From NCBI GenBank assembly GCA_040005235.1, contig JBDTZG010000014.1, positions 1 to 64,000 of the forward strand: DNA of 64,000 nt. Direction: 5' to 3'. The DNA comes from Acidobacteriota bacterium. Lineage in GTDB: Bacteria > Acidobacteriota > Thermoanaerobaculia > Multivoradales > UBA5704. Each line of letters opens with the position of its first letter. Positions within the stretch are counted from its first letter, which is position 1. The notes below the pieces were generated by a model. It was not told where the DNA came from. It saw nothing but the letters and a program-made list of their open reading frames with translations, and made no database searches. Made by a program: the position numbers and the translations under genes. This document shows positions 3 to 20,024 of this stretch, in pieces.

Positions 3-608
3 GCGCTCAGTTGCCACCCGGGAATCCGTGAGACGGTGGTCCTGGCGTGCGAAGAAGAGGGCGAAACGCGCCTCGCCGCCTATGTCGTGCCCGACGGGTC
101 TCCCTTGGGGGCCGAGACTCTGCGCGCCTTCTTGCGTGAGCGGCTGCCGGAGCCGATGGTGCCGTCCTGGTTCGTCGCCTTGGACGCCCTGCCGCGCACC
201 CCCAACGGCAAGCTCGACCGCCGGGCGATGCCGCTCCCGGGGGGCGAGCGGCCGGATCTCGAAGCGCCGTTCGTCGAGCCGGGGACAGACCTCGAACGGA
301 CGATCGCCGAGGTCTGGCGCGAGGTTCTGCGCCTCGACCGGGTAGGCCTGTACGACAACTTCTTCGATCTGGGCGGCAACTCGCTCACCATCGCGCAGGT
401 TCGCGTCCATCTGTACCACCGGCTCGCGCAGGACCTGCCGCTGGTCGAGCTGTTCCGCTTCCCAACCGTCGGCGCGCTGGCCTCCTACCTTGATCGGTCC
501 GGGCCGCAAGAAGCGCCGTCGTTCGCCGCGGTCGAGCAACGCGTCGATAAAGCCAAGGTCGCGCTCGAACGCCAGCGGCGCGCCGCCAAAGCGAGGAAGG
601 CCGGATGA
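3..608 (+). CDS. NRPS, 3' fragment (A-domain C-terminus, PCP, basic docking tail); truncated by the left window edge
   Basis: Frame is open from position 3 (ALSCHPGIRETVVLA...). Motifs: A10 LPRTPNGKLDR, PCP NFFDLGGNSL, Arg/Lys-rich tail. The stop overlaps the next ATG (ATGA at 605-608). Confidence 0.93.
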   Translation, partial: ALSCHPGIRETVVLACEEEGETRLAAYVVPDGSPLGAETLRAFLRERLPEPMVPSWFVALDALPRTPNGKLDRRAMPLPGGERPDLEAPFVEPGTDLERTIAEVWREVLRLDRVGLYDNFFDLGGNSLTIAQVRVHLYHRLAQDLPLVELFRFPTVGALASYLDRSGPQEAPSFAAVEQRVDKAKVALERQRRAAKARKAG

Positions 609-3600
609 GCCCCCTCGACGAAACCGACGAAGAGTCGGCGCCGGGAAACGGCATCGCGATCGTCGGTCTCGCCGGTCGCTTCCCGGGCTCCCCGACGCTG
701 CCCGAGCTGTGGCGCAACCTGCGCGATGGTGTTGAGTGCATCTTCCCGATCTCCGAGGCGGACCTCGAAGCGTCGGGTCTGCCGCCGGAGACCTGGAAGG
801 ACCCGCGCTACGTCCGCGCTTCGCCCTGGCTCCCCGGAATCGACCGGTTCGACGCCCGGTTCTTCGGCTTTTCCCCACGCGAAGCCACTCTCCTCGATCC
901 GCAGCACCGGCTGTTCCTGGAGTGCGCGTGGGAGGCGTTCGCCAACGCGGGCTACGACCCGCAGGGTTATGCCGGCGCGATCGGCGTCTACGTCGGCTGC
1001 CAGTTCAACCAGTACCTGCTGTGGAACGTCCTGCCGAACGTCGCGTCGCTCCACCCGGCCGAGATCGCCGGGCTGCGCCAGCTTTCCGATAAGGATTACC
1101 TCGCGACCCGCATCTCCTACCTGTTGAACCTGCGCGGGCCGAGCATGGCGGTGCAGACCGCCTGCTCGACCTCGGCTGTAGCCGCGCACCTCGCCTGTCG
1201 GAGCCTCCTCGGCTACGAGTGCGACATGGCGCTGGTCGGGGGAGTCTGCCTGACCGTCCCGCACCGCGCGGGCTACCTCTACCAGAAGGGGGGCATCCTC
1301 TCGCCCGACGGGCACTGCCGGGCCTTCGATGCCGAGGCGCAGGGGACGGTGATGGGCAGCGGCGCCGGTGCCCTGGTGCTCAAACGGCTGGAGGACGCCC
1401 GGGCCGACGGCGACTCGATCCGCGCCGTGATCCAAGGCTCCGCGGTCAACAACGACGGCTCGAACAAAGTCGGCTACACCGCGCCGAGCGTCGATTCCCA
1501 GGCCGAGGCGATCGCCGCCGCCCACGACTTCGCGGGTTTTTCGCCCGAAACTATCTCGTACATCGAGGCGCACGGCACCGGGACGCCGATGGGCGATCCG
1601 ATCGAGATCGCCGCGTTGAACCACGCCTTCCGCCGCGGCACCGAGCGGAGGGGCTTCTGCGCCGTCGGCTCGCTCAAGACCAACCTCGGCCACCTGGAGG
1701 CGGCGGCCGGGGTCGCGGGGGTGATCAAGACCGTTCTGGCGCTCGAAAACGAGCTGATCCCGCCGAGCCTTAACTGCAAGACACCGAATCCGGAGATCGA
1801 CTGGGCGACTTCGCCCTTCTTCGTCAACACCGCGGCGCGCGCCTGGCCCAAGGGCGAGGCGCCGCGGCGCGCGGGAGTCAGCTCGTTCGGCGTCGGCGGC
1901 ACCAACGCCCATCTGGCGCTCGAAGAGGCGCCTGAGCGCGCTCCCGGCAGTCCCTCGCGCCCCTGGCAGCTGCTGGTGCTCTCGACCCGGACGGAGACCG
2001 CGCTCGAAATCGCGACCGCGGAGCTGGCGGAGCATCTCAGCAAGAGCCCCGAGCAGTCGGATCTCGCCGACGCCGCCTACACCTTGCAGATCGGCCGCCG
2101 CGCCTTCGCCCATCGCCGGATCGTCGTGGCGCGAGACTTTGCCGATGCGGCGGAGACACTCAAGAGCCGCGACCCGAAGCGCGTGCTCTCCCGGCGCGAG
2201 GAACGGGCGGATCGGCCGGTGGCGTTCCTTTTCCCCGGGCAGGGGACGCAACACGTAGGCATGGCGCGCGGTCTCTACGAAGCGGAGCCGACCTTTCGGG
2301 CCGAGATCGACCGCTGCTGCGAAGTGCTCGGCGCCGATCTGCGTTCGTTGATCTTGGGCCACGGGGACGATGCCGCGGTCCGCCTGGAGCGGACCGCGAA
2401 CGCCCAGCCGGCGCTGTTCGTCGTCGAGTACGCGCTCGCCCGGCTCTGGATGGAGTGGGGGATCGAGCCCGCTGCGATGCTCGGCCATTCGATCGGCGAG
2501 TACGTGGCGGCGTGCCTGGCGGGCGTGCTGTCGCTCGAAGACGCGCTCGCGCTGGTGGCGGCCCGCGGGCGGCTGATGGACGGCCTCCCCGAAGGGGCGA
2601 TGCTGAGCCTGCCGTTGCCCGAGGCCGAAGTGACGGCGATGCTGGGAAGCGAGCTGTCGCTCGCCGCGGTCAATGCCCCTTCACTCTCTGTCGTCTCGGG
2701 GCCAATCGACGCCGTCGCGGCGCTCCGCGAGGATCTAGCGACCCGCGGAATCGACGCCCGTCGCCTCCACACCTCGCACGCTTTCCATTCGGCGATGATG
2801 GATCCGGCGCTCGAAGCGTTCGGTCGAGAGGTGCGGAAGGTCCGTCTGAACCCGCCGCAACGCCCGTATCTCTCCAACCTCACCGGCACCTGGATCACCG
2901 CGGAAGAGGCGACGGACCCCGAGTACTGGGTACGTCACCTGCGCGGAACAGTTCGATTCTCGGCGGGTCTTTCCGAATTGCTGCGCAACAAAGACCTGGC
3001 GCTCCTGGAGGTCGGCCCCGGACGCGCGCTAAGCACCCTGGTTCGCCAGCATCCCGATGCCGCCAAATCGCGGGCCACGATCCAGTCCCAGCGCCCGCCG
3101 CGCGCGAGCCAGCCGGAGACGGCCGAAGAGCCCGATCAGGCCTACCTGCCCATCGCCCTGGGCCGCCTCTGGCTCGCCGGAGCGCGGATCGACTGGCGCG
3201 GCTTCTATGCCCGCGAGAGGCGCCTGCGCGTCCCGCTGCCGAGCCATCCGTTCGAGCGCCAGCGCTACTGGATCGATCCACCGCGCGCTGCCCAGGCACC
3301 CGCCGTTTCCTCCCTTCCTGACGTTCTTGCCGTACCTGCCGTTCTCTCGGTCCCTGCCCAGCCCCTGGGCCTGTTCCACCCCCGCCCCGATCTCGAAACC
3401 CCCTACGCCGCGCCAACCCACCCGACCGAGCAACTGCTCGCCGAAATCTGGCAGCAGATGCTCGGCCTCGAACCGGTCGGCATTCACGACAGCTTCTTCG
3501 ATCTGGGCGGCCACTCGCTGATGGCCACCCAACTGGTCTCCCGCGTCCGCGACCGTTGCGGCGTCGAGCTGCCGCTCGCTGCCTTCTTCGACGGGCCGAC

Positions 3601-6600
3601 GATCGCCGAGCTGGCGCCGCTGCTGGCGGCATCCGGACCGCTCGCGATCGTCCCGGCGACGATTCCTCGTGCCCCGCGGGACCGCCCTCTGCCGCTCTCG
3701 TTCGCCCAAGCGCGGCTCTGGTTCCTCTACCAGCTCGATCCGGCCAATGCCGGCTACAACATGCCGCTCGCCCTCCGCGTCGCCGGGCCGCTCAAACCCG
3801 CGGTGCTCGAACGGGCGATCGAAGAAATCGTCCGTCGCCACGAGATTCTGCGCACCACGTTTCGGGTCTCTGCCGGCCAACCGGTCCAGGAGATCGCGCC
3901 GGCGCGTCCGTTCGCCCTGCCGGTGGTCGCGTTCGAAGGCGTCCCCGGGGCGTTGGAGGAAACCAAGCGCCTGCTACGCGGCCAAGTCCGCGCGTCGTTC
4001 GACCTCGAACGCGGGCCGCTCTGGCGCCTGTGCCTGCTGCGCCTGGCTCCCGAAGACCACGCAGTGGTGCTCGCAATGCACCACATCGTCTCCGACGGCT
4101 GGTCGATGGGTGTCCTGGTCCGCGAGCTGGGAGCGCTCTACGACGCCTTCTCGCGCGGCGAGTCGTCGCCGCTACGCCCCCTGCCGATCCAATACGCCGA
4201 CTTCGCCGCCTGGCAGCGCTCGGAGCTTTCCGGACCGGCCCTGGAAGAGCGGCTCGCCTGGTGGCGCGACCTGCTGATCGGCGGGCGCGGCGAGCTGCCG
4301 GTCCTGGAGCTGCCGCTCGACCGCCCGCGCCCGCCGTTCCAAAGATTCCACGGCGCGAAGCTCCCGGTGGTTTTCCCAACTGGGCTCACGGAGAGCCTGC
4401 GCGGTCTCGGCAACAGGAATGGCGCCACGCTGTTCATGATCCTCCTAGCCGGATTCGAGACCCTCCTCCACCGCTACACGCGCCAAACCGACCTGGTCGT
4501 AGGCACGCCCATCGCCGGGCGCAACCGTAGCGAGATCGAGGGTCTGATCGGCCTGTTCCTCAACAATCTACCGCTACGCGCCAACCTCTCGAATACGCCC
4601 TCCTTCATTGAGCTTTTAGCGCAGGTCCGGGAGACCACGCTCGGCGCCTATGGCCACCAGGATCTCCCCTTCGAGCGGTTGGTCGAGGAGCTGAAACCCC
4701 GCCGCGACCTCGCGCGGAGCCCGATCTTCCAAGTCATGCTCAGTCTAGAGACGGCGGCCGCAGCGCCTCCGGAACCCTCCGGGGCCTCCGGTCTAGCCTG
4801 GAGCCGCCTCCCGGCGGACATCGGCGCTTCGCGCTACGAATGGACCTTCTTCCTCTCCGACGACGGGAACGACGTCCGAGGGATTCTCGAATACGACACC
4901 GACCTGTTCGACGAGACGACGGTGTGCCGCGCTGTCGGCCATCTGATCCGCCTGCTGGAAGCGGCGGCGGACGCCCCCGCGACGAGCCTCTCCCGGCTCC
5001 GCCTGCTCTCGGACGACGAGGAGCGGCAGCTGGTGGTCGAGTGGAACGACACGGCGCGCGACAACGACCTCGGCGCATCTTGGCGGCCGACTCACGTGCG
5101 AATCGCCGAGCAGGCGGCGCGGGCACCGAAAGCCCTGGCCGTCACCTGCGATGGCGAGACCCTCACCTACGCCCAGCTCGAAGCCCGCGCCAACCGCCTT
5201 GCCCGCCACCTGCGTGCCCTGGGTGTAGGACCGGAGGTGCCGGTCGGCATTTATCTCGACCGATCGCTCAACCTGCCGGTCGCCCTCCTCGCGGTCTGGA
5301 AAGCCGGTGGAGCCTATCTGCCGCTCGATCCGGCGTACCCCAAAGACCGCCTCTCCTACATGCTGGAGGACTCAGGCGCGCCGCTGGTGTTGACGGAGGC
5401 AGGCCTCTTGGCGACGGTGCCGCCGAGCCGAGCCCGCATCGAACGTATCGATCTCGATTCCGACGAGAGCGCGATCGATCCCGGCGTCCCGACGGCGCCC
5501 GAGTCGCTCGCCTACATCCTCTACACCTCCGGCTCGACGGGGCGGCCCAAAGGCGTGCAGATCCCGCACGGCGCGTTGATCAATTTCCTCGAATCGATGG
5601 AGGTGCGCCCAGGCCTGGTCGCCTCCGATCGCCTGCTCGCGGTTACTTCGCTGTCGTTCGACATCGCGGGCCTGGAGCTGTTCCTGCCGCTGCTTGCCGG
5701 AGCCGAGGTCGAGATTGCGAGCCGGGCGCTCGCATCCGACGGCCCCCGGCTGATCGCGCGCCTCGCCGCCGCGACCGTGCTTCAGGCGACCCCTTCCACC
5801 TGGCGTCTGCTGCTCGATGCCGGCTGGCATGGGAGCGCGGGCCTCAAGGCGCTGTGCGGCGGCGAAGCCTTGCCGCCGAAACTCGCGCACGAGATCGCCG
5901 CGCGCGCCGGCTCGCTGTGGAACATGTATGGCCCGACGGAGACGACGATCTGGTCCGCCGTCCGCCTCGTCGAGCCGGGAATGGGGGAGAGCGCCACGCC
6001 CGTCTCGATCGGCCGGCCGATCTCCAACACGACGATCTACGTCGTCGATTCGGCGTTTCAGCCCACCCCGGTCGGCGTGCCCGGCGAGCTGTGGATCGGT
6101 GGCTCGGGTGTAGCCAGAGGCTACCGCGGCCGTCCCGACCTCACCGCCGAGCGCTTCATCCCCGACCCGTTCTCAAAAGTAGTCGGCGCGCGCCTCTACC
6201 AGACCGGCGATCTCGCCCGGTGGCTTGGCGACGGCGAGCTGGAGTTCCTCGGCCGCATCGACCATCAGGTGAAGGTTCGCGGCTACCGCATCGAGCTGGG
6301 GGAGATCGAGGCGGCGCTCGAACAGCACCCGGCCCTTCGCGCCGCCGTAGTCGTGGTGCGGGAGGACACGCCCGGCGATCCGCGGCTGACCGCCTATGCG
6401 GTGGCAGGAGGAGCCACGGTCGAGGGCGGCGAGCTTCCGCCGGTCTTGAGGCGCCACCTGCGCGCCAAGCTCCCCGAGTACATGGTGCCTTCGGCATTCG
6501 TGCTCCTCTCGGCGCTGCCGCTGCTGCCGAACGGCAAGGTGGACCGCCGTTCTCTGCCTGCTCCGGCCGTGTCGGCCGCACCGGACACCGAGCCGAGCAA

Positions 6601-9600
6601 GCCGTCTTCCGCTCCGAAGAGTCGCCTCGAAGCGATCATCGCGGACGCCTGGCGCGCTGTGTTGAACGTCGATCGGGTAAGCGTCCAAGACAACTTTTTC
6701 GATCTCGGCGGCCATTCGCTGCTGCTCGCGCAGGTCCACCTGCGGCTGCGCGAGAGCTTGCCCGACGACCTCGGCGCGCGGCTCTCGATGGTCGAGCTGT
6801 TCCAGCATCCGACGATCGCCGCTTTGGCCCGCCACCTGCGCCCCGAGGCCTCGCTCACGCTCGCCGAGCCCGGCCGGCTGCGCGCCGAGCTGCGGCTCGG
6901 CACCCACGCCCGGCGGGGGAGCGAGATCGCGATCGTCGGCATGAGCGGCCGGTTCCCGGGCGCCGCCGACGTCGAGCGGTTCTGGCACAACCTCCGCCTC
7001 GGGGTCGAGTCGATCTCCAACTTCAGCGACGAGGAGCTGCTCGGCTCAGGCGTCGACCCCGACCTGTTCCGCGGTCCCCACTACATCAATGCCAAGGGGA
7101 TCCCCGACGGGATCGGCTGGTTCGACGCCGGCTTCTTCGGCTACACGCCGCGCGAGGCCGAGATCATCGACCCGCAGCAGCGGATGTTTTTAGAGGTCGC
7201 CTGGGAGGCGCTGGAAAACGCCGCCTGCGATCCCGATCGCTACCCCGGTTCGATCGGGGTGTTCGCCGGCTCGGGGCTCAACACCTACCTGATCAACCTC
7301 TACTCGAACCCTGAGCTGATGGCGGCGGTCGGCGGCTTCCAAGCGACGATCAGCAACGACAAGGATTTTCTGCCCACCCGGGTGTCGTACAAGCTGAACC
7401 TCAAAGGGCCAAGCCTGAACGTTCAGACCGCCTGCTCGACTTCTCTGGTCGCCGTCCATCTCGCCTGCCAGCACCTGCTGCACGGCGAGTGCGACGTGGC
7501 GCTCGCGGGTGGCGCAACCCTGTATTTTCCGATCAAGTCCGGGACCACCTACCACGAGGGGGGCATCCTCGCCCGCGACGGCCATTGCCGGGCGTTCGAC
7601 GAACGATCGCAAGGGACCGTGGTGGGCAACGGCGTCGCCGCGGTGGTGCTCAAGCGGCTGGACGACGCTCTGGCGGACGGCGATTCGATCTACGCCGTGA
7701 TCAAGGGCTCGGCGATCAACAACGACGGCTCGGTGAAGGTAGGCTACACCGCGCCCAGCGTCGAGGGGCAGGCCGCCGTGATCTCCCAGGCGCACTCTGT
7801 TGCCGGCGTTTCCCCCGAGACGATCCGCTACGTCGAGGCCCACGGCACCGGCACGGCCCTCGGCGACCCGATCGAGGTCCGCGCGCTTTCGCAGGCGTTC
7901 CGACTCGGTACGGCCAAGCTCGGCTTTTGCGGCATCGGCTCGGTCAAAAGCAACATCGGCCATCTCGACACCGCGGCCGGCGTCGCCGGGTTGATCAAGG
8001 CGACGCTCGCGGTCGAGCGCGGCGAGCTGCCACCATCGCTCCATTTCGAGCGGCCGAACCCTGCCCTCGATCTACCGAACACACCGTTTTACGTCGTCGA
8101 CCGGCTCACGCCCTGGACGGCCGACGCAACGCCCCGGCGCGCCGGGGTGAGCGCGTTCGGCATCGGCGGCACCAACGCCCACGTGATTCTGGAGCAGGCG
8201 CCGCCGGCCGTTCCTACCGGTCCCGCTCGCGCCCATCAGCTGCTCGTGCTGTCAGCGCGTACCGAAGCGGCGCTCGATCAGGCGACCGACAACCTCGCGC
8301 GGCATCTGCGCGAGCGATCAGAGGGGGCGGAGTGTCCGGAGCCACCGCTCGCCGACGTGGCGTTCACCCTGCAGGTCGGCCGCAAGGTCTTCGCCCACCG
8401 CCGCACGGTGGTCGCCGAAACGTTAGAGGACGCCGCCTCGGCGCTCGAATCGCGCGATCCCAAGCGGGTGCTCTCCCAGGTCCAGGAAGCCGGCGACCGC
8501 CCGGTCGTCTTCCTGTTCGCGGGGGGCGGCGCGCAGTACGCCAATATGGGCCTCGACCTCTACCGTTCGGAACCGGTGTTTCGCGAGCAGGTGGACCTCT
8601 GCCTGCGTCTATTCGAGCCGCATGTCGATGCCGATCTGCGGCGGTATCTCTTCCCCGCGCCCGAAGAGGTGGAAGAGACCGCGCGCGAGATCGAGCGCAC
8701 GTCGATCGCCCTGCCGATCCTGTTCGCGGTCGAGGTGGCTCTCGCGCGCCTGTGGATGTCGTGGGGCGTTGCACCGCAGGCGATGATCGGCCACAGCCTG
8801 GGGGAGTACGCGGTGGCTCACCTTTCCGGAGTCCTGGCGCTCGAAGACGCGGTGGCTCTCGTGGCGCTACGCGGCCGCCTGTTCGAGACCCTACCCGAGG
8901 GCGGGATGCTGTCCGTGCCTCTGCCCGAGGCGGAGGTCTTGGCCCTCTTGTCGATGCTTTTCGCCGAGAGCAATCGACTTTCGATCGCTCTCGGCGATGG
9001 GCTCTCGATCGCCGCGGTCAACGGCCCCGCCTTCTGCGTCGTCTCCGGTCCGGCTGCGGCGATCGGGCAGGCTCGCGAGGCGTTCGCCGCGCGCGGCATC
9101 GACGCCCGCCGCCTGCACATCGCGGTCGCCGCTCATTCGACGGTGGTGGAGCCCATCCTGCGCGAATTCGGCGATTTCGTCGCAACACTTTCACTCTCGC
9201 CCCCCGCCATCCCTTACATCTCGAACGTCACCGGCACCTGGATGACCGCCAACGACGCCGCAGATCCCCAATATTGGGTGCGGCATTTGCGCCAGACCGT
9301 GCGCTTCGGCGACGGCATCGGCGAGCTGCTCAAAGACGGCGAACGGATCTTCCTGGAGGTCGGTCCCGGCCAGACCCTGAGCATGCTCGTCATGCAGCAC
9401 CCCGGCCGGCCGTCGGGTCAGACGGTGCTCCATTCGCTGCGCCATCCGCAGGACCGGCAATCGGACGCTGTATTCCTGCTCCAAGCTCTCGCCAAGCTCT
9501 GGCTGGCCGGCGCGGCCGTCGATTGGACGGGTTTCCATTCCGGCGCGCGCCGCCGCCGGCTGCGCCTGCCGACCTATCCGTTCGAGCGCCGGCTCTTTTT

Positions 9601-11494
9601 TGTCGAACCGCAGCGCCGCGGGTTCGAAGACCTGCAGCGGCGAGCAGCCCTGCGCCGCCGGTCGGACGTCGGCGACTGGCTCTACGCTCCCTCCTGGCGT
9701 CAGTCCCCGCCGCCACGTCCGGCCGGCGAGATCGCCGCCGCCTCTTGGCTGCTGTTCCTCGATCGCCATGGGCTCGGGGACCTTCTCTCCGCCCGGCTGA
9801 CGGAGATGGGACAGCGGGTGGCGGCGGTGCGCCCGGGCGAGCGGGACCCTGGCGCCGTGCTGCGCGATCTCGGAGAGCTCCCGGACGTCATCGTTCACCT
9901 CGGGTGCGTGGACGACGGTGCCGAGGATGCGGCCGAGGAGGCGGGCTTCTACAGCCTGCTCGGCCTGGCCGGGGCTCTCGCCGAGCGCGGGGCGGGCAAG
10001 CCGGTGCGCCTCGAGGTCGTCACTTGCGGCGCGCAGGCGATCATCGGCGAGGAGCGAATCGATCCGGAGAAGGCTCTCGTCCTCGGGCCGGTCCGGGTCG
10101 TGCCGCAAGAGATCCCGAACGTCGCCTGCCGCGCCATCGACGTCGACCTGCCGGAGCGGGGGAGTCGGCGCGAGCGCGCGCAGGTCGATCGGCTCGCCGC
10201 GGACTTGCTCTCCGCCTTCGCCGCGCCGCCGCCGCCCACTGAGTACGCCGTGGCCTACCGCGGTGCGCAGCGCTGGGTGCAGGGCTTCGAGCCGGTCCCG
10301 CTGTCGGCGGGGCCCGGCCCGTTGCGGCCGGGCGGCGTCTACCTCATCACGGGCGGTCTGGGCGGCGTAGGCATGGCGCTCGCCGAGCACCTTGCGCGGA
10401 CGGTGCAGGCCAAGTTGGTCCTCGTGGGCCGTTCCCCCTTGGCGCCGCGCGAGATTCGCCGCCTCCAGGTCCTCAAGGAGCTGGGCGCGGAGGTCTTGGC
10501 GGCGAGCGCCGACGTCTGCGATCTCGTCGCCCTGCGCGCCGTGCTCGACGAGGCGCATCGGCGCTTCGGTCCGCTCCACGGCGCCATCCATGCCGCGGGT
10601 GTCGCGAGCGGCGGCATGATCCAGCTGAAGACCCGGGAGAGCGCGGCGGCGGTCCTCGCGCCCAAGGTACAAGGCACGCGGGTCCTCGCCGCGGCTTTGG
10701 AAGGGGAGCCGCTCGATTTCCTGGTGCTCTGCTCCGCCGTCAACTCGGTGCTCGGCGGCTTCGGGCGGGTGGATTTCTGCGCCGCGAGCGCCTTCCTCGA
10801 CGCCTTCGCCCTGGAGCGTTCGGGCGTGCGGGAGGGCTTGACGCTGGCGATCGACTGGGACACCTGGAGCGAGACCGGAGTGGTGGCGGAGGGCGAGCTG
10901 CCCCCGGACTTGGAGGAGGCGCGGCGGCGGAGCCTCGCCCACGGCATGGCGACGGCCGAAGCGATCGAGGTGTTCGACCGCGCTCTGGCGAGCGGCCTGC
11001 CGCGGGTGGTGGTCTCGACGCGCGACCTCATGGGTCTGCTCGAACGGCGCCCCACCGCCGCGGCGAGCGAGACGGCCGAAGTGCCACGCGTCACGGCCTC
11101 GCACGGCCGGCCGACGCTCTCCACTCCTTATGTGGCGCCCCAGGGCGAGATCGAGCCGGGGGTCGCCGCCGTCTGGGAGGAGTTTCTCGGCATCGGTGGG
11201 CTCGGCGCGCACGACAATTTCTTCGAGCTGGGAGGGCATTCGCTGCTCGCGACCCAGATCACCTCGCGCCTGCGCGATCGCTTCGACGCCGCGCTCTCGA
11301 TCGCCCGCTTCTTTGCCGAGCCGACGATCGCCGGGCTGGCCGCCACCTTTGCGAGCGCCGACCGGGCGGAGGGGATGGACACCGGGCGGGTGGGCCGCCT
11401 GCTCGAAGAGATCGAAGGGTTGTCGGAAGCGGAGCTTGACGCTCTGCTCGCCGCCGAGGAGAGCCTGGTCGAAAGCGAGCAGCTGGATGAGTGA
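605..11494 (+). CDS. Hybrid PKS-NRPS-PKS: KS-AT-ACP-C-A(Gly)-PCP-KS-AT(unusual)-KR(likely inactive)-ACP
   Basis: KS1 QTACSTS/HGTGT/GHLE; AT1 GHSIG and HAFH (malonyl); ACP GGHSL; C HHIVSDGWS; A code read as DILQLGMIWK (Gly type); KS2 QTACSTS/HGTGT/GHLD; AT2 GHSLG and VAAH; KR GGLGGVG but VDFCAAS in place of YxxxN; ACP GGHSL. Confidence 0.95.
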   Translation: MSPLDETDEESAPGNGIAIVGLAGRFPGSPTLPELWRNLRDGVECIFPISEADLEASGLPPETWKDPRYVRASPWLPGIDRFDARFFGFSPREATLLDPQHRLFLECAWEAFANAGYDPQGYAGAIGVYVGCQFNQYLLWNVLPNVASLHPAEIAGLRQLSDKDYLATRISYLLNLRGPSMAVQTACSTSAVAAHLACRSLLGYECDMALVGGVCLTVPHRAGYLYQKGGILSPDGHCRAFDAEAQGTVMGSGAGALVLKRLEDARADGDSIRAVIQGSAVNNDGSNKVGYTAPSVDSQAEAIAAAHDFAGFSPETISYIEAHGTGTPMGDPIEIAALNHAFRRGTERRGFCAVGSLKTNLGHLEAAAGVAGVIKTVLALENELIPPSLNCKTPNPEIDWATSPFFVNTAARAWPKGEAPRRAGVSSFGVGGTNAHLALEEAPERAPGSPSRPWQLLVLSTRTETALEIATAELAEHLSKSPEQSDLADAAYTLQIGRRAFAHRRIVVARDFADAAETLKSRDPKRVLSRREERADRPVAFLFPGQGTQHVGMARGLYEAEPTFRAEIDRCCEVLGADLRSLILGHGDDAAVRLERTANAQPALFVVEYALARLWMEWGIEPAAMLGHSIGEYVAACLAGVLSLEDALALVAARGRLMDGLPEGAMLSLPLPEAEVTAMLGSELSLAAVNAPSLSVVSGPIDAVAALREDLATRGIDARRLHTSHAFHSAMMDPALEAFGREVRKVRLNPPQRPYLSNLTGTWITAEEATDPEYWVRHLRGTVRFSAGLSELLRNKDLALLEVGPGRALSTLVRQHPDAAKSRATIQSQRPPRASQPETAEEPDQAYLPIALGRLWLAGARIDWRGFYARERRLRVPLPSHPFERQRYWIDPPRAAQAPAVSSLPDVLAVPAVLSVPAQPLGLFHPRPDLETPYAAPTHPTEQLLAEIWQQMLGLEPVGIHDSFFDLGGHSLMATQLVSRVRDRCGVELPLAAFFDGPTIAELAPLLAASGPLAIVPATIPRAPRDRPLPLSFAQARLWFLYQLDPANAGYNMPLALRVAGPLKPAVLERAIEEIVRRHEILRTTFRVSAGQPVQEIAPARPFALPVVAFEGVPGALEETKRLLRGQVRASFDLERGPLWRLCLLRLAPEDHAVVLAMHHIVSDGWSMGVLVRELGALYDAFSRGESSPLRPLPIQYADFAAWQRSELSGPALEERLAWWRDLLIGGRGELPVLELPLDRPRPPFQRFHGAKLPVVFPTGLTESLRGLGNRNGATLFMILLAGFETLLHRYTRQTDLVVGTPIAGRNRSEIEGLIGLFLNNLPLRANLSNTPSFIELLAQVRETTLGAYGHQDLPFERLVEELKPRRDLARSPIFQVMLSLETAAAAPPEPSGASGLAWSRLPADIGASRYEWTFFLSDDGNDVRGILEYDTDLFDETTVCRAVGHLIRLLEAAADAPATSLSRLRLLSDDEERQLVVEWNDTARDNDLGASWRPTHVRIAEQAARAPKALAVTCDGETLTYAQLEARANRLARHLRALGVGPEVPVGIYLDRSLNLPVALLAVWKAGGAYLPLDPAYPKDRLSYMLEDSGAPLVLTEAGLLATVPPSRARIERIDLDSDESAIDPGVPTAPESLAYILYTSGSTGRPKGVQIPHGALINFLESMEVRPGLVASDRLLAVTSLSFDIAGLELFLPLLAGAEVEIASRALASDGPRLIARLAAATVLQATPSTWRLLLDAGWHGSAGLKALCGGEALPPKLAHEIAARAGSLWNMYGPTETTIWSAVRLVEPGMGESATPVSIGRPISNTTIYVVDSAFQPTPVGVPGELWIGGSGVARGYRGRPDLTAERFIPDPFSKVVGARLYQTGDLARWLGDGELEFLGRIDHQVKVRGYRIELGEIEAALEQHPALRAAVVVVREDTPGDPRLTAYAVAGGATVEGGELPPVLRRHLRAKLPEYMVPSAFVLLSALPLLPNGKVDRRSLPAPAVSAAPDTEPSKPSSAPKSRLEAIIADAWRAVLNVDRVSVQDNFFDLGGHSLLLAQVHLRLRESLPDDLGARLSMVELFQHPTIAALARHLRPEASLTLAEPGRLRAELRLGTHARRGSEIAIVGMSGRFPGAADVERFWHNLRLGVESISNFSDEELLGSGVDPDLFRGPHYINAKGIPDGIGWFDAGFFGYTPREAEIIDPQQRMFLEVAWEALENAACDPDRYPGSIGVFAGSGLNTYLINLYSNPELMAAVGGFQATISNDKDFLPTRVSYKLNLKGPSLNVQTACSTSLVAVHLACQHLLHGECDVALAGGATLYFPIKSGTTYHEGGILARDGHCRAFDERSQGTVVGNGVAAVVLKRLDDALADGDSIYAVIKGSAINNDGSVKVGYTAPSVEGQAAVISQAHSVAGVSPETIRYVEAHGTGTALGDPIEVRALSQAFRLGTAKLGFCGIGSVKSNIGHLDTAAGVAGLIKATLAVERGELPPSLHFERPNPALDLPNTPFYVVDRLTPWTADATPRRAGVSAFGIGGTNAHVILEQAPPAVPTGPARAHQLLVLSARTEAALDQATDNLARHLRERSEGAECPEPPLADVAFTLQVGRKVFAHRRTVVAETLEDAASALESRDPKRVLSQVQEAGDRPVVFLFAGGGAQYANMGLDLYRSEPVFREQVDLCLRLFEPHVDADLRRYLFPAPEEVEETAREIERTSIALPILFAVEVALARLWMSWGVAPQAMIGHSLGEYAVAHLSGVLALEDAVALVALRGRLFETLPEGGMLSVPLPEAEVLALLSMLFAESNRLSIALGDGLSIAAVNGPAFCVVSGPAAAIGQAREAFAARGIDARRLHIAVAAHSTVVEPILREFGDFVATLSLSPPAIPYISNVTGTWMTANDAADPQYWVRHLRQTVRFGDGIGELLKDGERIFLEVGPGQTLSMLVMQHPGRPSGQTVLHSLRHPQDRQSDAVFLLQALAKLWLAGAAVDWTGFHSGARRRRLRLPTYPFERRLFFVEPQRRGFEDLQRRAALRRRSDVGDWLYAPSWRQSPPPRPAGEIAAASWLLFLDRHGLGDLLSARLTEMGQRVAAVRPGERDPGAVLRDLGELPDVIVHLGCVDDGAEDAAEEAGFYSLLGLAGALAERGAGKPVRLEVVTCGAQAIIGEERIDPEKALVLGPVRVVPQEIPNVACRAIDVDLPERGSRRERAQVDRLAADLLSAFAAPPPPTEYAVAYRGAQRWVQGFEPVPLSAGPGPLRPGGVYLITGGLGGVGMALAEHLARTVQAKLVLVGRSPLAPREIRRLQVLKELGAEVLAASADVCDLVALRAVLDEAHRRFGPLHGAIHAAGVASGGMIQLKTRESAAAVLAPKVQGTRVLAAALEGEPLDFLVLCSAVNSVLGGFGRVDFCAASAFLDAFALERSGVREGLTLAIDWDTWSETGVVAEGELPPDLEEARRRSLAHGMATAEAIEVFDRALASGLPRVVVSTRDLMGLLERRPTAAASETAEVPRVTASHGRPTLSTPYVAPQGEIEPGVAAVWEEFLGIGGLGAHDNFFELGGHSLLATQITSRLRDRFDAALSIARFFAEPTIAGLAATFASADRAEGMDTGRVGRLLEEIEGLSEAELDALLAAEESLVESEQLDE
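3302..3355 (+). repeat. Degenerate 9-bp tandem repeat (about 6 units) in the AT1-ACP1 linker
   Basis: gccgtttcc/tcccttcct/gacgttctt/gccgtacct/gccgttctc/tcggtccct, encoding AVS SLP DVL AVP AVL SVP. T-rich third positions, unlike the flanking codons. Confidence 0.6.
8961..8997. repeat. In-frame hairpin (17-bp arms, 1 mismatch, 3-nt loop) inside AT2
   Basis: tcgccgagagcaatcga-ctt-tcgatcgctctcggcga. It coincides with about 14 extra residues (SMLFAESNRLSIAL) relative to AT1 of the same protein. Confidence 0.8.
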
Positions 11495-12860
11495 GACCGA
11501 GCGCGTGGGTGAGGCGGAGGTGCAGGGGATGCCCTCCGGCGCACCCGACCGGCCGCGGGGCATGCGGGACTTCCTGGTGCTCTGGATCGGGCAGGTCGTT
11601 TCGAGCCTGGGCTCGGGGCTGTCCGGCTTCGCGATCGGGGTGTGGACCTTCAAGCAGACCGGCTCGGCCACGGCGCTTTCGCTGATCACCCTGTTCGCCA
11701 CCCTGCCGAACTTCCTGCTCTCGCCGATCGCCGGCGCGCTGATCGACCGCTGGGGGCGGCGCTCGGTGCTGCTGATCAACAACTTCGGCTCCGGGGCGTG
11801 CACCCTCGCGATGGCGCTGCTCTACTGGACCGGCCGGCTGGAGCTTTGGCACGTCTATACCCTGGTGCTCGCGAGCCGCTGCTTCAACGTCTTTCAGCTT
11901 CCCGCCTTCTCCGCGACCACCGCGCTCCTGGTGCCGAAGCGACAGCTAGTGCGCGCCAATGGCATGGCCCTGCTGGGGCCGGCGGCGGGACAGATCGCCG
12001 CCCCTCTGCTCGCCGCGGCGCTGATGGGGGTGATCGGGGTTGGGGGGGTCGTCTTCCTCGACTGCAGCTCGTTCCTGTTCGCCGCAGTTACCCTGCTCGC
12101 GATCAAAATCCAACGCCCCGCGATCTCGTCGGCCGGCCAAGAAGGGCGGGGATCGCTGCTCTTCGAGTCGTTCTACGGCTGGACCTTTATCCGCAAACGG
12201 CCCGGCCTGCTGGGCCTGTTGCTGTTCTTCGCCTTCGCCAACTTCTGCCTCTCGGTGGTGCAGATCCTACTCACGCCGTTGGTGCTGTCGTTCGCCTCGA
12301 CCCAGACGCTCGCCGCGGTGCTGACCTCCGGCGCGGCCGGCGGCATCGCGGGCGGCCTCGCGCTGGGGGTGTGGGGCGGTGGCCGCTCGCTACGCCGAAT
12401 TCCGATCATCTTGAGCTTCACCGTGCTTCAGGGCGCAATGCTGCTGCTCGGCGGCCTGCGCCCGAGCGCGCTGCTGGTGGCCGCCGCCACGTCGATCGCG
12501 CTGTTCGCGGCGCCGGTGATCCGCGGTTCGAGCGAGGCGATCTGGCAGAGCAAGGTGCCCCAGGATCTCCAGGGCCGGGTCTTCGCGATCCGCCGGATGA
12601 TTGCGGGCGTTGCGTTTCCGCTCGCCGGGGCGGCGGCCGGGCCGCTCGCCGACCGGGTCTTCGGGCCGCTTCTGATGCCCGGCGGGCCGCTCGCCGACAG
12701 CGTCGGCCGCCTGCTTGGCACCGGGCCGGGCCGAGGGATCGGCCTGCTGTTCATGATGCTCGGGGTGCTCACCCTGCTGTCGGTCGCGGTGATCGCCCGG
12801 ATCCGGTCGGTGCGCAAAGTGGAGACCGAATTGCCGGATCTGCTGGAGTTTTCTCGGTGA
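11487..12860 (+). CDS. MFS transporter (DHA3/macrolide-efflux-like), probable product exporter
   Basis: Multiple hydrophobic helices; FLVLWIGQVVSSLGSGL; motif A GALIDRWGRR; QSKVPQDLQGRVFA. ATG at 11487 overlaps the upstream stop. The ORF-track start at 11130 lies inside the PKS gene. Confidence 0.92.
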   Translation: MSETERVGEAEVQGMPSGAPDRPRGMRDFLVLWIGQVVSSLGSGLSGFAIGVWTFKQTGSATALSLITLFATLPNFLLSPIAGALIDRWGRRSVLLINNFGSGACTLAMALLYWTGRLELWHVYTLVLASRCFNVFQLPAFSATTALLVPKRQLVRANGMALLGPAAGQIAAPLLAAALMGVIGVGGVVFLDCSSFLFAAVTLLAIKIQRPAISSAGQEGRGSLLFESFYGWTFIRKRPGLLGLLLFFAFANFCLSVVQILLTPLVLSFASTQTLAAVLTSGAAGGIAGGLALGVWGGGRSLRRIPIILSFTVLQGAMLLLGGLRPSALLVAAATSIALFAAPVIRGSSEAIWQSKVPQDLQGRVFAIRRMIAGVAFPLAGAAAGPLADRVFGPLLMPGGPLADSVGRLLGTGPGRGIGLLFMMLGVLTLLSVAVIARIRSVRKVETELPDLLEFSR

Positions 12861-15800
12861 GCGCCGCGGACGATCTCGCCCGGCGCCTCGCCGCGCTGCC
12901 GGAGAAGCAGCGGCGGCTGCTGGAGCTGCGCCTGGCCCGCGAGCGCAAGGAGGAGCCGGCAAGCGGCTCGATCCCGACGCAGCCGCGCGACGGACGCCGG
13001 TTCCCGCTCTCACCCGCTCAAGCGCGGCTCTGGTTCCTCGACCGCCTGGAGCCCGGCAGCCCCTGGTACAACATGGCCCTGCCGCTGCGCCTGACCGGAC
13101 CGCTGGACGCCGCGGCGCTCGCGGCCTCGCTCGCCGAGGTGGAGCGCCGCCACGAGGTGCTACGCACCACGTTCGCGTTGGACGGCGAGGGGAGCGCGGT
13201 CCAGGGCGTCGGCGCGCCGGCCGGCCTGCCGCTCCCCGCGGTCGCCCTCTTGGCGCTGCCGCCCGCCGCGCGCGGGCTTGAGCTCAAGCGCTTGCTGGCT
13301 GCTCCGGTCCGGCGGCCGTTCGACCTCGCGAGCGGGCCGCTGATGCGCGCCCTCTTGGTCTCGACCGCCGAGTCCGAGCACGCGTTCCTGCTCTCCATGC
13401 ACCACATCGTTTCGGACGGCTGGTCGCTCGGCGTCCTGGTCCGGGAGCTGGCTGTCCTCTATCAGGCTTTCTCGCGGCGCCTGCCGTCGCCGCTCGCCTC
13501 GCTGCCGATTCAGTACGCGGATTTCGCGGTCTGGCAACGTGGCCTGCTCGCCGGGCCGTTTCTCGCGGAGCTTCTCGCCTACTGGCGCCGCCAGCTCGAT
13601 GGCGCGCCCCCGCTGGTGGCTCTCGCCACCGACCGGCCGCGCCCGGCGGTCCAGACGTTTCACGGCGCCACCTGGACGTTCGCGCTGCCGCCGGGGACCG
13701 CGACCTCGGTCCACGAGCTCTCCCGCCGCGCGGGCGCAACCCCGTTCATGACCCTGCTGGCCGCGTTCCTCGCGCTGCTCCATCGCCATTCCGGTCAGGA
13801 CGACCTAGCAGTGGGCTCACCGATCGCCAACCGCGGCCGGGCGGAGCTAGAAGATTTGATCGGCTTCTTCGTCAATACCCTGGTGCTGCGCGCCGATCTC
13901 TCCGGCGATCCCGGATTTGACGCGTTGCTGCGCCAAGTCAAGACGCTCGCGACCGGCGCGTATGGGCATCAGGATCTGCCGTTCGAAATGCTGGTCGAAG
14001 AGCTGGCGCCGGAACGCGAGCTGGCGCATGCGCCGCTGTTCCAGGTGATGTTCGTGCTGCAGAACGCCCCGTCCCCGGCGCTCGACCTCTCCGGGCTGAC
14101 ACTCGCGCCGCTGCCGGCAAGGAGCGGCACGTCGAAGTTCGACCTCACGCTTTTCCTCTGGGAAGGGCAGAACGAATTCGGCGGCACCTTCGAGTACAAC
14201 ACCGACCTGTTCGACCCGGCGACGATCGTCCGCTTGGCGGACGGCTTCGCGCTCCTGGTGGGCGGCGCTCTCGCCGATCCTCAGTGCCGGGTCTCGGAGC
14301 TGCCGCTCTTGAGCCCCGCGGAGCGGCACCGCCTGCTCGTCGAGGCCGGCGATACGGCGCCTAGCTTCCGTGTAGATTCCGGACTCACCCGTCTTCACCA
14401 TCCCTTCGAGCGCCAAGCAACGGCGACGCCCGACGCGATCGCCCTAGTGGCCGGCGGGCGGCGGCTGAGCTATCGGGATCTCGACATCCGCGCCAACCGG
14501 CTCGCCCATCGCCTGCGCGGCCTCGGGGTCGGAGCGGAGAGCCCGGTCGGGATCGCGATGCGCCGCTCGGCCGAGCTGGTGGTGACGATCCTCGCGGTCT
14601 TGAAGGCGGGAGGCGCCTACGTGCCGCTCGATCCCGAGTATCCCGCCGAGCGCCTCGCCTTCATCCTCGAAGACTCCCGCGCAAAGGTGCTGATCGTCGA
14701 CGCGATGGACGCTAACGACGCGGGAAGCGGCGCGCGACGTATCTGCCCGGCCGCCGAGCAGGAGGCGCTCGCCGCGCTACCGGCGTCGCCACCCGCGCTC
14801 GCCGAACCCGCCGGGATCGCCTACGCGATCTACACCTCCGGCTCGACCGGCCGCCCGAAGGGGGTCGCGATCGAGCACCGGAGCGCCCTCCTCTTTCTGC
14901 ACTGGGCGCGCGAGGCCTTTTCGCCGGAGGAGCTGGCGGGAGTTCTGTTCTCGACGTCGATCTGTTTCGACCTGTCGATCTTCGAGTTGTTCGCGCCGCT
15001 TTCGTGGGGCGGCCGGATCGTCCTGGTCGAGGACGCGCTCGCTCTCGCCGGTCTGCCCGCGGCGGACGAATTGACGCTGATCAACACGGTCCCCTCGGCG
15101 ATCTCCGAGCTTCTCCGGCTGGGCCCATTGCCGCGCTCGGTGCGGACTGTGAACCTCGCCGGAGAGGCGCTCCCGCGCGCTCTCGCGGACCGGGTGTACG
15201 CCGAGCCGGGAGTGGCCCGGATCTACGACCTCTACGGACCGTCGGAAGATACGACCTATTCGACCTACGCCCTGGTCGTCCGGGGCAGCAGCCAAGAGCC
15301 CGCGATCGGCCTACCCCTGCCGGGGACCCGCGTCTACCTGCTCGACCGGCAGCTTCATCCGGTGCCGCTCGGGGCGTCCGGCGAGCTGTGTCTCTCCGGC
15401 GAGGGCTTGGCGCGAGGCTACCTGGGTCGTCCCGCTCTCACCGCGGAGAGATTCCTTCCCGATCCCTTCGGCGGCGGTCGTGATTTTGTTTGCCTCCTCG
15501 CTCCTTCGGGCGCCTTCGGCAGCAGCCAGTCGCTGCGGGGCAAACAAAACCACGACCTTGGTGGAGAAAGGGGGGGGCGCCTCTATCGCACCGGCGACCT
15601 GGCGCGCTGGCTGCCCGACGGCAACCTCGCCTATCTGGGCCGGCTCGACCACCAGGTGAAGATCCGCGGTTTCCGTATCGAGCTGGGGGAGATCGAGACC
15701 GCCCTGCGCGCCCATCCGGCCGTTCGCGAGGCGGCGGTCACCGCGGGGGCCGGCCCGAGCGGCGAGCAGCGCCTGGTGGCCTACGTCGTCCAGGACCAAG

Positions 15801-18596: not shown

Positions 18597-20024
18597 GTGA
18601 CAGAGGTAACCATTTCGGTTGAGGAGACAAGCACCTTTGATGGCAGTTGGACTGAAGAGCTGCAGTCCGTACACCGGAGTATCTCGGAGGTGGATTTTCG
18701 TTTCCGCGAGTTTGCCCGAACTCGTCCTGAGTTCCTCGAGCGGATGAAGTTCTCCGTGCTTGACCAGAATCGAGACCTGTTGAAATTCGCGATTCAACCC
18801 TGGCCCACTTTCGTGGGCCGTGAAAAGCTTGCCGAGTTTCTGCGAGTGAGTGGCGGGATCAACCGCCTGATTCGACAGATCCCGACTCGGATCTTCCGGA
18901 ATGATCCGGAGAAAGTCAGTAACTTTTACGAAGTGGGCTCACCCATGTTGGCGGAGATCGTACTCTCTGAACCCAACGGAGTCTCCTCCGCCTTGTCGAG
19001 GGGAGATTTCATCGAGACCCGCGATGGCTTCAAGTGCATCGAATTCAATTTTACCCCGAACCTGGGAGGGTGGGAGACCTCCGTCCTCGTGGGCATGCAT
19101 CTGGAGGTGCCCGCCACCGCGGAATTCATCCGCTCATCCGGGATCGAAGTGAGATACACCAACACGATGAGGAAATTCTTCTTTCACATAATTGACGAAG
19201 CCACCCGCCTGGGACTTTGCCCGGACGGCGAGCTCAACATTGCGCTGGTCGTTTCCCGCGAGAACTCCGCCTATCGAACAGAGACCGCCAGGAGGTATCT
19301 GAATTCCGAATACGACTTGGCAAAGAAGGAGCTGGAAGGGAGGGTTCATGGCACCGTAGAGGTCTGTCAGTACGGCTCCCTGGTACCTAGCGGCGGCACC
19401 CTATTCCTGAACCGTCTCAAGATCCAAGCCCTGGTGGAACTCAGTGGCGAGGTCACTCCTTCGAGCGTCTACCGATGTTTCAAGGCAAAGAAGCTCGCTC
19501 TACTGAATGGCCCCGCATCGCCAATCCTGTCCAGCAAGCAGAACATCGCGTTGCTCTCCGAGCACGCGGACTCTTCGGTGTTCGGTGCCGAGGAACAGCA
19601 GCTCATTCGCGATCACATACCTTGGACCCGCGAAGTGACCGACCGAGAGGTCGACTATCTTGGCACCCGCGTGGCCTTGCCAGACTTGCTGGCGAACCGG
19701 CAAAACGACCTCGTGCTCAAGCAGGTACGTTCGTTTGGCGGCAAGGACGTCATCGTCGGAACCTATGCCTCGGCCGAGCAATGGGAAGAGCAGGCCCGGA
19801 TCGCCCTTCAGGAACGGGGCTGGGTGGTCCAGGAGTTCATGGAATCGCTACCCTATTTGTTTCAGTGTGGGGAGTACGGGAGCGCTGCCCACGATGTGAT
19901 CTGGGGTCCCTTCTATCTTGGCGAGACCTACGGTGGCGGAATTCTGCGGATGCAGCCGAAGGCCTCCGGAGGACCAGTCAACCTAAGCCTGACCGCCACT
20001 GAGGGAATCATGCTCGAGGTCTGA
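18597..20024 (+). CDS. Circularly permuted ATP-grasp / glutathionylspermidine-synthase-like ligase
   Basis: RGDF...KCIEFN, SSKQNIALL, HIPWTR, LVLKQVRSFGGKDVIVG and WVVQEF match the motif order of this family. GTG start with a purine-rich RBS. Visibly lower GC than the upstream genes. Confidence 0.78.
   Translation: MTEVTISVEETSTFDGSWTEELQSVHRSISEVDFRFREFARTRPEFLERMKFSVLDQNRDLLKFAIQPWPTFVGREKLAEFLRVSGGINRLIRQIPTRIFRNDPEKVSNFYEVGSPMLAEIVLSEPNGVSSALSRGDFIETRDGFKCIEFNFTPNLGGWETSVLVGMHLEVPATAEFIRSSGIEVRYTNTMRKFFFHIIDEATRLGLCPDGELNIALVVSRENSAYRTETARRYLNSEYDLAKKELEGRVHGTVEVCQYGSLVPSGGTLFLNRLKIQALVELSGEVTPSSVYRCFKAKKLALLNGPASPILSSKQNIALLSEHADSSVFGAEEQQLIRDHIPWTREVTDREVDYLGTRVALPDLLANRQNDLVLKQVRSFGGKDVIVGTYASAEQWEEQARIALQERGWVVQEFMESLPYLFQCGEYGSAAHDVIWGPFYLGETYGGGILRMQPKASGGPVNLSLTATEGIMLEV

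Follow-up and report, generated by a model that had tools for sequence, protein, structure and literature searches.

The acyltransferase (AT) domain ZmaA-AT of the zwittermicin A synthase uses hydroxymalonyl-acyl carrier protein (ACP) as extender and refuses malonyl- and methylmalonyl-coenzyme A (CoA) (Park et al. 2014; PMC4207774). The same paper connects two marks with ATs that take ACP-linked extenders. The first is a Tyr replacing the His of GHSxG, as listed in Table 2 for ZmaA (GYSFG) and ZmaF (GYSLG); the second is a hydrophobic patch (M-C-M or I-A-I; MXW in methoxymalonyl ATs) which replaces the RXR of CoA-using ATs, the MXW/MXM patch being located five residues ahead of the YASH motif. 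Table 2 also gives GHSQG and YASH as methylmalonyl motifs. Here, we have analyzed AT2, the second AT of a hybrid nonribosomal peptide synthetase (NRPS)/polyketide synthase (PKS) gene from an Acidobacteriota bacterium. The gene is located in the window, i.e., the whole stretch of 64,000 nucleotides under analysis, with which contig C132 (JBDTZG010000014.1) begins; the genome has 6.2 Mb, 66% G+C, and 140 contigs. Numbers with C, G, and L denote contigs, genomes, and loci of this analysis.

The motifs of AT2 are no private peculiarity, because they mark a widespread clade of ATs termed GGG type below. A putative hydroxymalonyl-ACP cassette with FkbH is encoded on another contig, C24. Sequence comparison leads us to favour, as a cautious judgement, that AT2 takes a CoA-linked extender rather than an ACP-linked one, and that the C24 cassette feeds a PKS module encoded on contig C117 instead.

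Active site of AT2 and its described relatives

A whole-genome profile search revealed seven ATs of family PF00698, three of which are located in the window (AT1, AT2, and AT3; Table 1). AT2 matched the profile with 173.3 bits (cut-off 32.7) over positions 1-317 of 319. Its Ser (GHSLGE), His (VAAH), and Arg (ALRGRL) aligned with S192, H297, and R217 of ZmaA-AT; the carboxylate-binding role of the conserved Arg is described in PMC4207774. Apparently, AT2 is an intact acyltransferase in which Ser, His, and carboxylate-binding Arg have been retained.

An initial annotation of this DNA had read FAGGGAQY, GHSLG, a downstream Arg, and VAAH in AT2 and HAFH in both other ATs of the window. A motif scan of the translation confirmed these motifs at the positions given, as well as FPGQG and HAFH in AT1 and AT3; furthermore, it revealed one additional change, the Gln of the AQP motif being replaced by Leu. 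AT2 fits the malonyl-CoA-specific motif set (GQG[ST]Q, AQP or TQP, GHS[IVL]G, HAFH) in GHSLG only, and with GHSLG and VAAH it does not fit the methylmalonyl-CoA-specific set. Neither noise nor sequencing errors account for the deviation, which is shared by all ten orthologues from other genomes (75-91% identity); these carry FAGGG[AST]QY, ALP, GHSLGEY, and either VAAH or AAGH. Including the window's own sequence, VAAH was found in 6 of 11 and AAGH in 5 of 11 cases.

Malonyl-type cis-ATs (AT1, AT3, ZmaK-AT, and CurL) have the same fold as AT2 and the same set of Ser, His, and Arg, and they also share the IDARRLH stretch, which is identical in AT1. They differ from AT2 at four positions, namely the Gln in each of the motifs GQG and AQP and, within HAFH, the first His and the Phe. 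AT2 and AT1 are 50-55% identical (55% in the alignment, 50% by tblastn). AT2 might thus be a malonyl-CoA transferase of a divergent lineage, with GGG, ALP, and VAAH recording the history of the clade and not a change of specificity. E. coli FabD, listed in Table 2 of PMC4207774 as malonyl-specific despite its VPSH motif, demonstrates that HAFH is not required. Nevertheless, we consider this explanation rather unlikely. The pocket size for extender choice is set by Q150, H278, and F280 according to a passage in a review (PMC6164871), and at these three positions (the last Gln of RVDVVQ and YASH positions 1 and 3) AT2 carries the smaller or hydrophobic residues Leu2703, Val2841, and Ala2843. In EryAT6, promiscuity increased when the same Gln was mutated, as stated in a passage of a preprint (bioRxiv 10.1101/2020.04.23.058214). 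Furthermore, AT1 has FPGQG and HAFH in all nine typed orthologous lines, so that an HAFH module followed by a GGG module is kept in 10 of 10 lines when the window's own is counted. Both modules follow an NRPS carrier: KS1 as well as KS2 would take its chain from a peptidyl carrier, because an upstream NRPS (A-domain C-terminus and PCP) precedes KS1. This constancy argues for different jobs of the two ATs and makes AT2 probably more than a duplicate of malonyl specificity, although it is not proof.

ZmaA-AT had been named as the closest parallel to AT2. Among solved structures this was indeed the case, with ZmaA-AT (4QBU) reaching 284 bits, followed by 5YDA (226 bits) and CurL (206 bits). However, the malonyl-CoA-specific ZmaK-AT is equally similar to AT2 by blastp (293 bits, 41.6% identity, versus 290 bits, 41.5%, for ZmaA-AT). 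In a control, the HAFH paralogues also matched ZmaA strongly (AT1 with 239 bits on third rank, AT3 with 243 bits on first rank); the similarity of AT2 to ZmaA is therefore mostly shared background. The sequences of ZmaA, ZmaK, and ZmaF were taken from plasmid pBMB400 of Bacillus thuringiensis, which carries the zwittermicin cluster, and the motif numbering for ZmaK and ZmaF agreed with Table 2 of PMC4207774. Like AT2, ZmaA-AT is a cis-AT of a hybrid NRPS/PKS line, belongs to a β-keto-reducing module (ZmaA-KR2), has small residues in a motif that is neither HAFH nor YASH (GAAH versus VAAH), and has lost the Gln of the GQG motif (GNG versus GGG). Unlike AT2, it has GYSFG, keeps the Gln in SQP, and carries the M-C-M patch; AT2 has GHSLG, ALP, and D-A-R at these sites, so that both marks described by Park et al. 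(2014) are absent. In their motifs, the two ATs thus appear to have no more in common than small residues in place of YASH and a GQG motif that has lost its Gln.

PDB entry 5YDA, which we take to be SpnD-AT of the splenocin PKS, resembles AT2 in several motifs. The alignment showed LPGGGTQY with its GGG, GHSLGEY, AAAH, and a hydrophobic residue at the AQP Gln. The substrates of SpnD-AT are reportedly supplied by a crotonyl-CoA carboxylase/reductase (CCR). A supply gene of this SpnD/AntD kind was not found in the window's genome, where the best of 11 matches to TIGR01751 reached 65.4 bits and none exceeded the cut-off of 378.55. Arg-Arg before the YASH loop is kept and the SpnD module follows an NRPS, as in AT2; in the splenocin AT, the motif with the EryAT6 Gln mentioned above contains a Phe that stacks on the substrate (bioRxiv 10.1101/2020.04.23.058214). 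Together with the presumably enlarged pocket of AT2 (V, A, L), these likenesses could indicate a transferase for bulky alkylmalonyl-CoA of the splenocin/antimycin kind, SpnD-AT being a broad alkylmalonyl-CoA AT. We regard this as improbable. Apart from the missing CCR, Pfam annotation showed neither a carboxylase nor a CCR gene in the synthase cluster, and 5YDA, which derives from an actinomycete, has no special overall similarity to AT2, being no closer to it than to AT1 (235 bits) or AT3 (231 bits).

The FkbH cassette and the AT that accompanies it

The initial annotation had proposed hydroxy-, methoxy-, or aminomalonate as the extender of AT2 and had reported no extender-supply genes in the window. 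The latter statement holds for FkbH, whose single match in the genome is located at C24:47761-48693 (TIGR01686, 264 bits) in the middle of an 89.7-kb contig. A genome devoid of any cassette, which would have spoken against the proposal, was not what we found, since a complete 3-hydroxyacyl-CoA dehydrogenase (3HCDH)-ACP-acyl-CoA dehydrogenase (ACAD)-FkbH set is present on C24. Here, 3HCDH-like and ACAD-like genes are located upstream of fkbH on the same strand, and a carrier protein of 79 aa is encoded between them; its matches to ACP families were weak (E ~1e-7) and below the cut-off. ThiC and a Schlafen/AlbA gene border the set. In the zma cluster the cassette stands beside the synthase, whereas here it is found on another contig. 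An O-methyltransferase was not found among the genes adjoining the cassette. A tblastn search with the four proteins gave no further site with two cassette proteins within 6 kb in the 140 contigs, hence no second, aminomalonate-type cassette was seen.

A second hybrid line, a lipopeptide line, is encoded on contig C117 (Table 1). Its AT carries ZmaA/ZmaF-like marks, namely GLGD for GQGxQ, a Tyr in GYSLG, and an A-C-L patch, and is therefore the likelier user of the C24 cassette. Compared with solved structures, the C117 AT matched ZmaA with 178 bits, tied with a GfsA chimera, which indicates no special link to ZmaA.

An alignment was made from the ATs of this genome, those of 150 further genomes in its class, and those of 80 related loci in species genomes, and the ATs were assigned to types which we defined by motif; in large genomes the typing covered part of the ATs (for example in G061, and all but one in both G103 and G129). 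The GGG type is characterized by F[PA]GGGxQY, [AN]-L-P, GHS[LM]GEY, and xA[A/G]HS. It takes in AT2, its ten orthologues, and ATs of Burkholderiales, Sphingomonadales, Rhodobacterales, Chloroflexota, and Calditrichia, thus extending over Acidobacteriota, Pseudomonadota, Chloroflexota, and Calditrichia. The GYS type, to which the C117 AT belongs, has [FL]PG[LIV]GDxY, AQP, G[YF]S[LI]GEY, and mostly x-C-[LIM] ahead of TTHAFHS; the ZmaF motifs FPGVGSHY and GYSLGEY are GYS-like. GYS-type ATs occur in the same genomes as AT2 and share with it the fold and the kind of hybrid KS-AT-KR-ACP module, but they form a separate clade in which G[LIV]GD replaces GQG, Tyr or Phe replaces the His of GHSxG, and HAFH is kept.

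A FastTree phylogeny of 168 distinct sequences placed 60 of 62 GGG-typed rows in a pure clade (support 0.962) and all 38 GYS-typed rows inside a clade of 39 (support 0.946). The two GGG outliers were Aminicenantes ATs with GYSFGEY and were re-labelled. A quick IQ-TREE topology proved to be non-optimal, since a constrained tree surpassed it, and was replaced by a careful search with 49 rows hand-picked from 186 (support given as UFboot/SH-aLRT). The careful tree recovered the GGG clade (98/98, 16 of 16 sampled rows) and the GYS clade (100/98). ZmaA-AT grouped with the two Aminicenantes ATs (99/96), and this group joined ZmaK-AT (97/89) outside the GGG clade; the backbone between the clades was poorly supported. 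AT2 apparently lies outside the ZmaA group, a sister relation to ZmaA-AT being possible. The phylogeny proposed by the initial annotation was thus obtained with ZmaA-AT, the FkbA, SorA, and OzmC ATs being absent from the tree; a clade of GGG type plus ZmaA was not recovered by the careful search and not rejected by the approximately unbiased (AU) test described below. The trees place the GGG clade within the HAFH-type ATs of hybrid synthases, which speaks for AT2 as a divergent malonyl-CoA transferase.

The two Aminicenantes ATs (L111, L119), both from metagenome-assembled genomes (MAGs), carry FSG[QH]GSQY, GYSFGEY, and xRAGHS. Being the nearest tree relatives of ZmaA-AT, they may represent genuine ZmaA-like ATs from outside Bacillus.

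FkbH genes are of two kinds, which can be told apart by identity and neighbours and are not separated by the FkbH bit score. Genes of the cassette type are 57-93% identical to the FkbH of the window's genome and are adjoined by ACP and ACAD and/or 3HCDH; other FkbH genes, for example those in a C-FkbH-PCP module, reach 25-34%. A GYS-type AT was found in 23 typed genomes; in 20 of these the cassette is intact, in one (G155) it is frameshifted, and in two (G205, G206) the type of the cassette is unverified. In five Chloroflexota genomes (G170, G173, G183, G199, and G203) a discrete GYS-type AT (open frames of 504-515 aa) adjoins 3HCDH-ACP-FkbH on the same strand, and the GGG-type AT of these genomes is part of a separate PKS elsewhere. 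G149 and G093, which belong to the same genus and the same family as the window's genome, respectively, possess the cassette and a GYS-type AT, with no GGG type among the two ATs of each.

The GGG-type AT, on the other hand, is often found without FkbH. No FkbH over the cut-off was detected in 33 of 58 genomes carrying it, including G103 (99% complete, with two GGG-type modules in one line), G129 (98% complete), and, among cultured bacteria, Caldimonas, Novosphingobium, Shimia, and one of the two isolates of Sphingobium. The closest relative, G151 (7.4 Mb, AT2 91% identical), gave no FkbH match; it also has no GYS-type AT, both matches to the C117 AT as query (E <= 1e-60) being non-GYS. Furthermore, no extender cassette was found within 10 kb of the AT in the 80 related loci.

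These distributions bear directly on the proposal that AT2 loads hydroxymalonyl-ACP from the unlinked C24 cassette, which would convert glycine into a 4-amino-2,3-dihydroxybutyryl unit after KR reduction. Its strong points are the small residues of VAAH, comparable to GAAH in ZmaA-AT, the rank of ZmaA-AT among solved structures, the complete and intact cassette, and the outcome of the AU test. We nevertheless judge it unlikely, because AT2 lacks both marks, the C117 AT explains the cassette better, and the clade commonly occurs without FkbH; the equal similarity to ZmaK-AT, the AT2 orthologue kept by G151 without FkbH, and the five genomes in which the AT beside the cassette is always GYS type and never GGG point in the same direction. 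A methoxy unit is made less likely still by the missing methyltransferase beside the cassette and an amino unit by the missing second cassette. Of the initial proposal there remain the odd motifs with Ser, His, and Arg kept and the existence of a cassette, which tracks the GYS clade.

A single FkbH gene was encountered within 10 kb in the 80 loci. It belongs to a Holophagales MAG (L118) and was rejected as an extender gene, since it is part of a C-FkbH-PCP module loading a glyceryl unit. This FkbH domain (L118:15170-18970) is embedded in an NRPS-like protein, and G153 and G195 have similar domains within open frames of 8984 and 9105 aa. In the long-read MAG G155 (C13:64202-65058; L142, L145), the ACAD and the FkbH of the cassette are each broken up into several frames, owing either to decay of the cassette or to indel errors left uncorrected. 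The discrete ATs of the five Chloroflexota genomes (L207-L211, from G199, G183, G173, G203, and G170, respectively) have FPGIGD[HQ]Y, GYSLGEY, and TTHAFHS and resemble ZmaF/OzmC-style trans-ATs for ACP-bound extenders; a synthase of ~3300 aa is encoded 8-10 kb from the discrete AT on the same contig in three of the five.

Extender unit of AT2

In the reading we favour, AT2 would load the ACP of a KS-AT-KR-ACP module which extends a glycyl-terminated chain. The GGG clade, with its changes from Gln to Gly in GQG, from Gln to Leu in AQP, and from His and Phe of HAFH to Val/Ala and Ala/Gly, all of them small or hydrophobic residues, would use a CoA-linked extender, and the hydroxymalonyl-ACP cassette on C24 would supply the hybrid PKS module on C117. 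The motifs, the clade, the cassette, and the patterns of co-occurrence and adjacency were observed directly; carrier type and extender are deduced from them.

Several observations weigh against this assignment. An intact cassette is present in 9 of the 11 genomes with an AT2 orthologue, and therefore co-occurrence alone leaves AT2 possible as a second client. G151 is a MAG of unstated completeness, many of the other genomes are MAGs too, and related genomes are not independent samples. ZmaA-AT leads the solved-structure matches of AT2 by 58 bits, and AT2 exceeds the HAFH paralogues in its match to ZmaA by ~40 bits. The AU test did not reject a group of GGG type, ZmaA-AT, and the two Aminicenantes ATs (p 0.764), a group that was named after the quick tree had been seen; the constrained tree was 15.2 log-likelihood units above the quick free tree and ~1.7 (about 2) units below the careful tree. 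The criteria of Tyr and hydrophobic patch come from one paper with few characterized enzymes. Finally, the CoA-linked reading of the GGG clade would follow indirectly, from the absence of FkbH.

As to the identity of the extender, we tentatively name an α-substituted malonyl-CoA first. Methylmalonyl-CoA is the obvious substituted candidate, because the genome contains two genes of the methylmalonyl-CoA-mutase family and none of its ATs has a YASH motif. Plain malonyl-CoA, in whose favour also stand the occurrence of the GGG type as the sole AT of one-module synthases in 33 loci, the many such genomes without FkbH, and the missing CCR of the window's genome, is a weaker candidate. Hydroxymalonyl-ACP appears unlikely, and what remains falls to other extenders.

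The residue to be extended had been given as glycine. The A domain preceding KS2 shows, by eye, the specificity residues D-I-L-Q-L-G-M-I-W-K, which would correspond to the glycine pattern of the Stachelhaus code; to that extent the prediction appears to stand.

Gene neighbourhood, related loci, and significance

The AT2 gene, its neighbours, and the relevant features on C24 and C117 are compiled in Table 1. In G151, the counterpart of the truncated upstream NRPS gene extends over 6662 aa or more, and positions 18-616 of the window align to the end of this open frame. For the terminal NRPS, the ORF finder had chosen a GTG at 11642, from which ~430 Arg/Ala/Pro-rich residues without a domain extend up to ~12950. 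This GTG is an unlikely start; the gene probably starts near 12950 instead, the stretch before it being occupied by the MFS transporter gene in a different frame. A separate NRPS/PKS cluster begins at 22696. Two open reading frames beside synthase genes, 18597-20024 (475 aa) and 31183-32109 (308 aa), have no Pfam family; the sole match of the former was a circularly permuted ATP-grasp domain with 17.6 bits.

Table 1. Positions of AT2, its motifs, and other features in the window (C132) and on contigs C24 and C117
Feature	Position	Strand	Evidence or remark
Upstream NRPS gene, 3' end (A-domain C-terminal part and PCP)	3..608	+	Pfam AMP-binding_C, PP-binding; truncated by contig start
Hybrid synthase gene, 3629 aa, KS-AT1-ACP-C-A-PCP-KS-AT2-KR-ACP	605..11494	+	Translation, Pfam domains
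AT1, canonical malonyl-type motifs FPGQGTQH, AQP, GHSIGEY, IDARRLHTSHAFHS	2225..3076	+	PF00698 search, motif scan, alignment
A domain, from the NRPS module that feeds KS2	5105..6547	+	Pfam AMP-binding aa 1501-1840; anchor motifs located by motif scan
KS2; active-site Cys in QTACSTS (7424-7453), HGTGT (7841-7855)	6926..8197	+	Pfam, motif scan
AT2	8486..9520	+	PF00698 match 8507-9514
AT2 FAGGGAQY, GGG for GQG	8516..8539	+	Motif scan; kept in 11/11 orthologous lines
AT2 SIALPILF, Leu for Gln of AQP (last Gln of RVDVVQ)	8702..8725	+	Alignment, motif scan
AT2 GHSLGEY, catalytic Ser preceded by His, not Tyr	8789..8809	+	Motif scan
AT2 ALRGRLF, conserved Arg binding the free carboxylate of the extender	8864..8884	+	Motif scan; aligns with R217 of ZmaA-AT
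AT2 IDARRLHIAVAAHS, RXR position D-A-R, then VAAH (9125-9136) with catalytic His	9098..9139	+	Motif scan, alignment
KR domain of AT2 module	10334..10873	+	Pfam KR aa 3244-3423
ACP phosphopantetheine site (GGHSL) of AT2 module; predicted carrier loaded by AT2	11231..11257	+	Motif scan
MFS transporter gene between both synthase genes	11570..12860 (start approximate)	+	Pfam MFS_1 on ORF 11130-12860, match from aa 151
Terminal NRPS, C-A(embedded methyltransferase)-PCP-TE	12950..18391	+	Pfam
AT3, third AT of the window, FPGQGSQY...HAFH	49902-50861		PF00698 search, alignment
Intact 3HCDH-ACP(79 aa)-ACAD-FkbH operon	C24:45500-48789 (L002:9500-12789)		Outside window; synthase genes are distant
Second hybrid line, FAAL-ACP-(C-A-PCP)x4, then KS-AT-KR-ACP-C-A-PCP-C-A-PCP	C117:14284-39307 (L147, L148)		Outside window; lipopeptide line
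C117 AT, GYS type: FPGLGDQY, GYSLGEL, VACLPVSTTHAFHS, hydrophobic A-C-L patch, in KS-AT-KR-ACP module	C117:22765-23796		

Outside the Acidobacteriota, GGG-type ATs were found in a conserved gene order. In 33 of 33 loci examined (Proteobacteria, Chloroflexota, Calditrichia) the AT is part of one KS-AT-KR-DH-ACP-TE protein of ~2150-2200 aa, which is preceded by a formyltransferase-A-PCP protein with a luciferase-like monooxygenase embedded in the A domain and often followed by genes for a family 2 glycosyltransferase (GT2), a DegT-type aminotransferase, and a phosphopantetheinyl transferase. The locus is represented by L124:3434-17928 and 32 others (e.g., L091, L079, and L115) in Burkholderiales, Sphingomonadales, Rhodobacterales, Chloroflexota, and Calditrichia. 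These synthases would again perform a single PKS extension of a carrier-bound unit; the locus flanked by GT2 and DegT genes might yield a sugar-linked acyl unit. The clade possibly also has a discrete, trans-acting member, since one GGG-type AT (G020:C16:77837-78826; L049) is encoded by an open frame of only 474 aa.

Searches of the literature and of a plasmid collection yielded no biochemically characterized member of the GGG clade that could be placed. ATs from a Ralstonia megaplasmid and from Planktothrix were excluded, being of the HAFH type, and the only GGG-type AT among the plasmid matches examined belongs to a Paracoccus PKS within a polysaccharide locus.

The finding concerns a question of specificity at the level of a single domain within an otherwise ordinary hybrid NRPS/PKS cluster. 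The choice of extender by ATs underlies the polyketide structures predicted by genome miners, and the HAFH/YASH rules give no call for AT2. An xAAH motif together with an FkbH cassette in the genome is insufficient to call hydroxymalonate. A GYS-type AT with Tyr in GHSxG explains the cassette better and, if the link holds, would provide a practical rule for assigning ACP-linked extenders. It is conceivable, though doubtful, that the GGG-type ATs, i.e., AT2 and more than 50 relatives, constitute a separate extender-specificity class which uses a unit other than malonyl-CoA and is independent of FkbH and CCR. If so, GGG, A-L-P, and xA[A/G]H would be a new predictive signature, GGG-type modules would add one C2 unit to an amino-acid-derived chain on a carrier, and G[LIV]GD with GYSxGEY would generally mark those ATs that receive their extender from FkbH-type cassettes. 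The GGG clade is large and taxonomically wide; hence, a single characterized member would annotate many clusters, including the glycosyltransferase-flanked locus of Proteobacteria and Chloroflexota.

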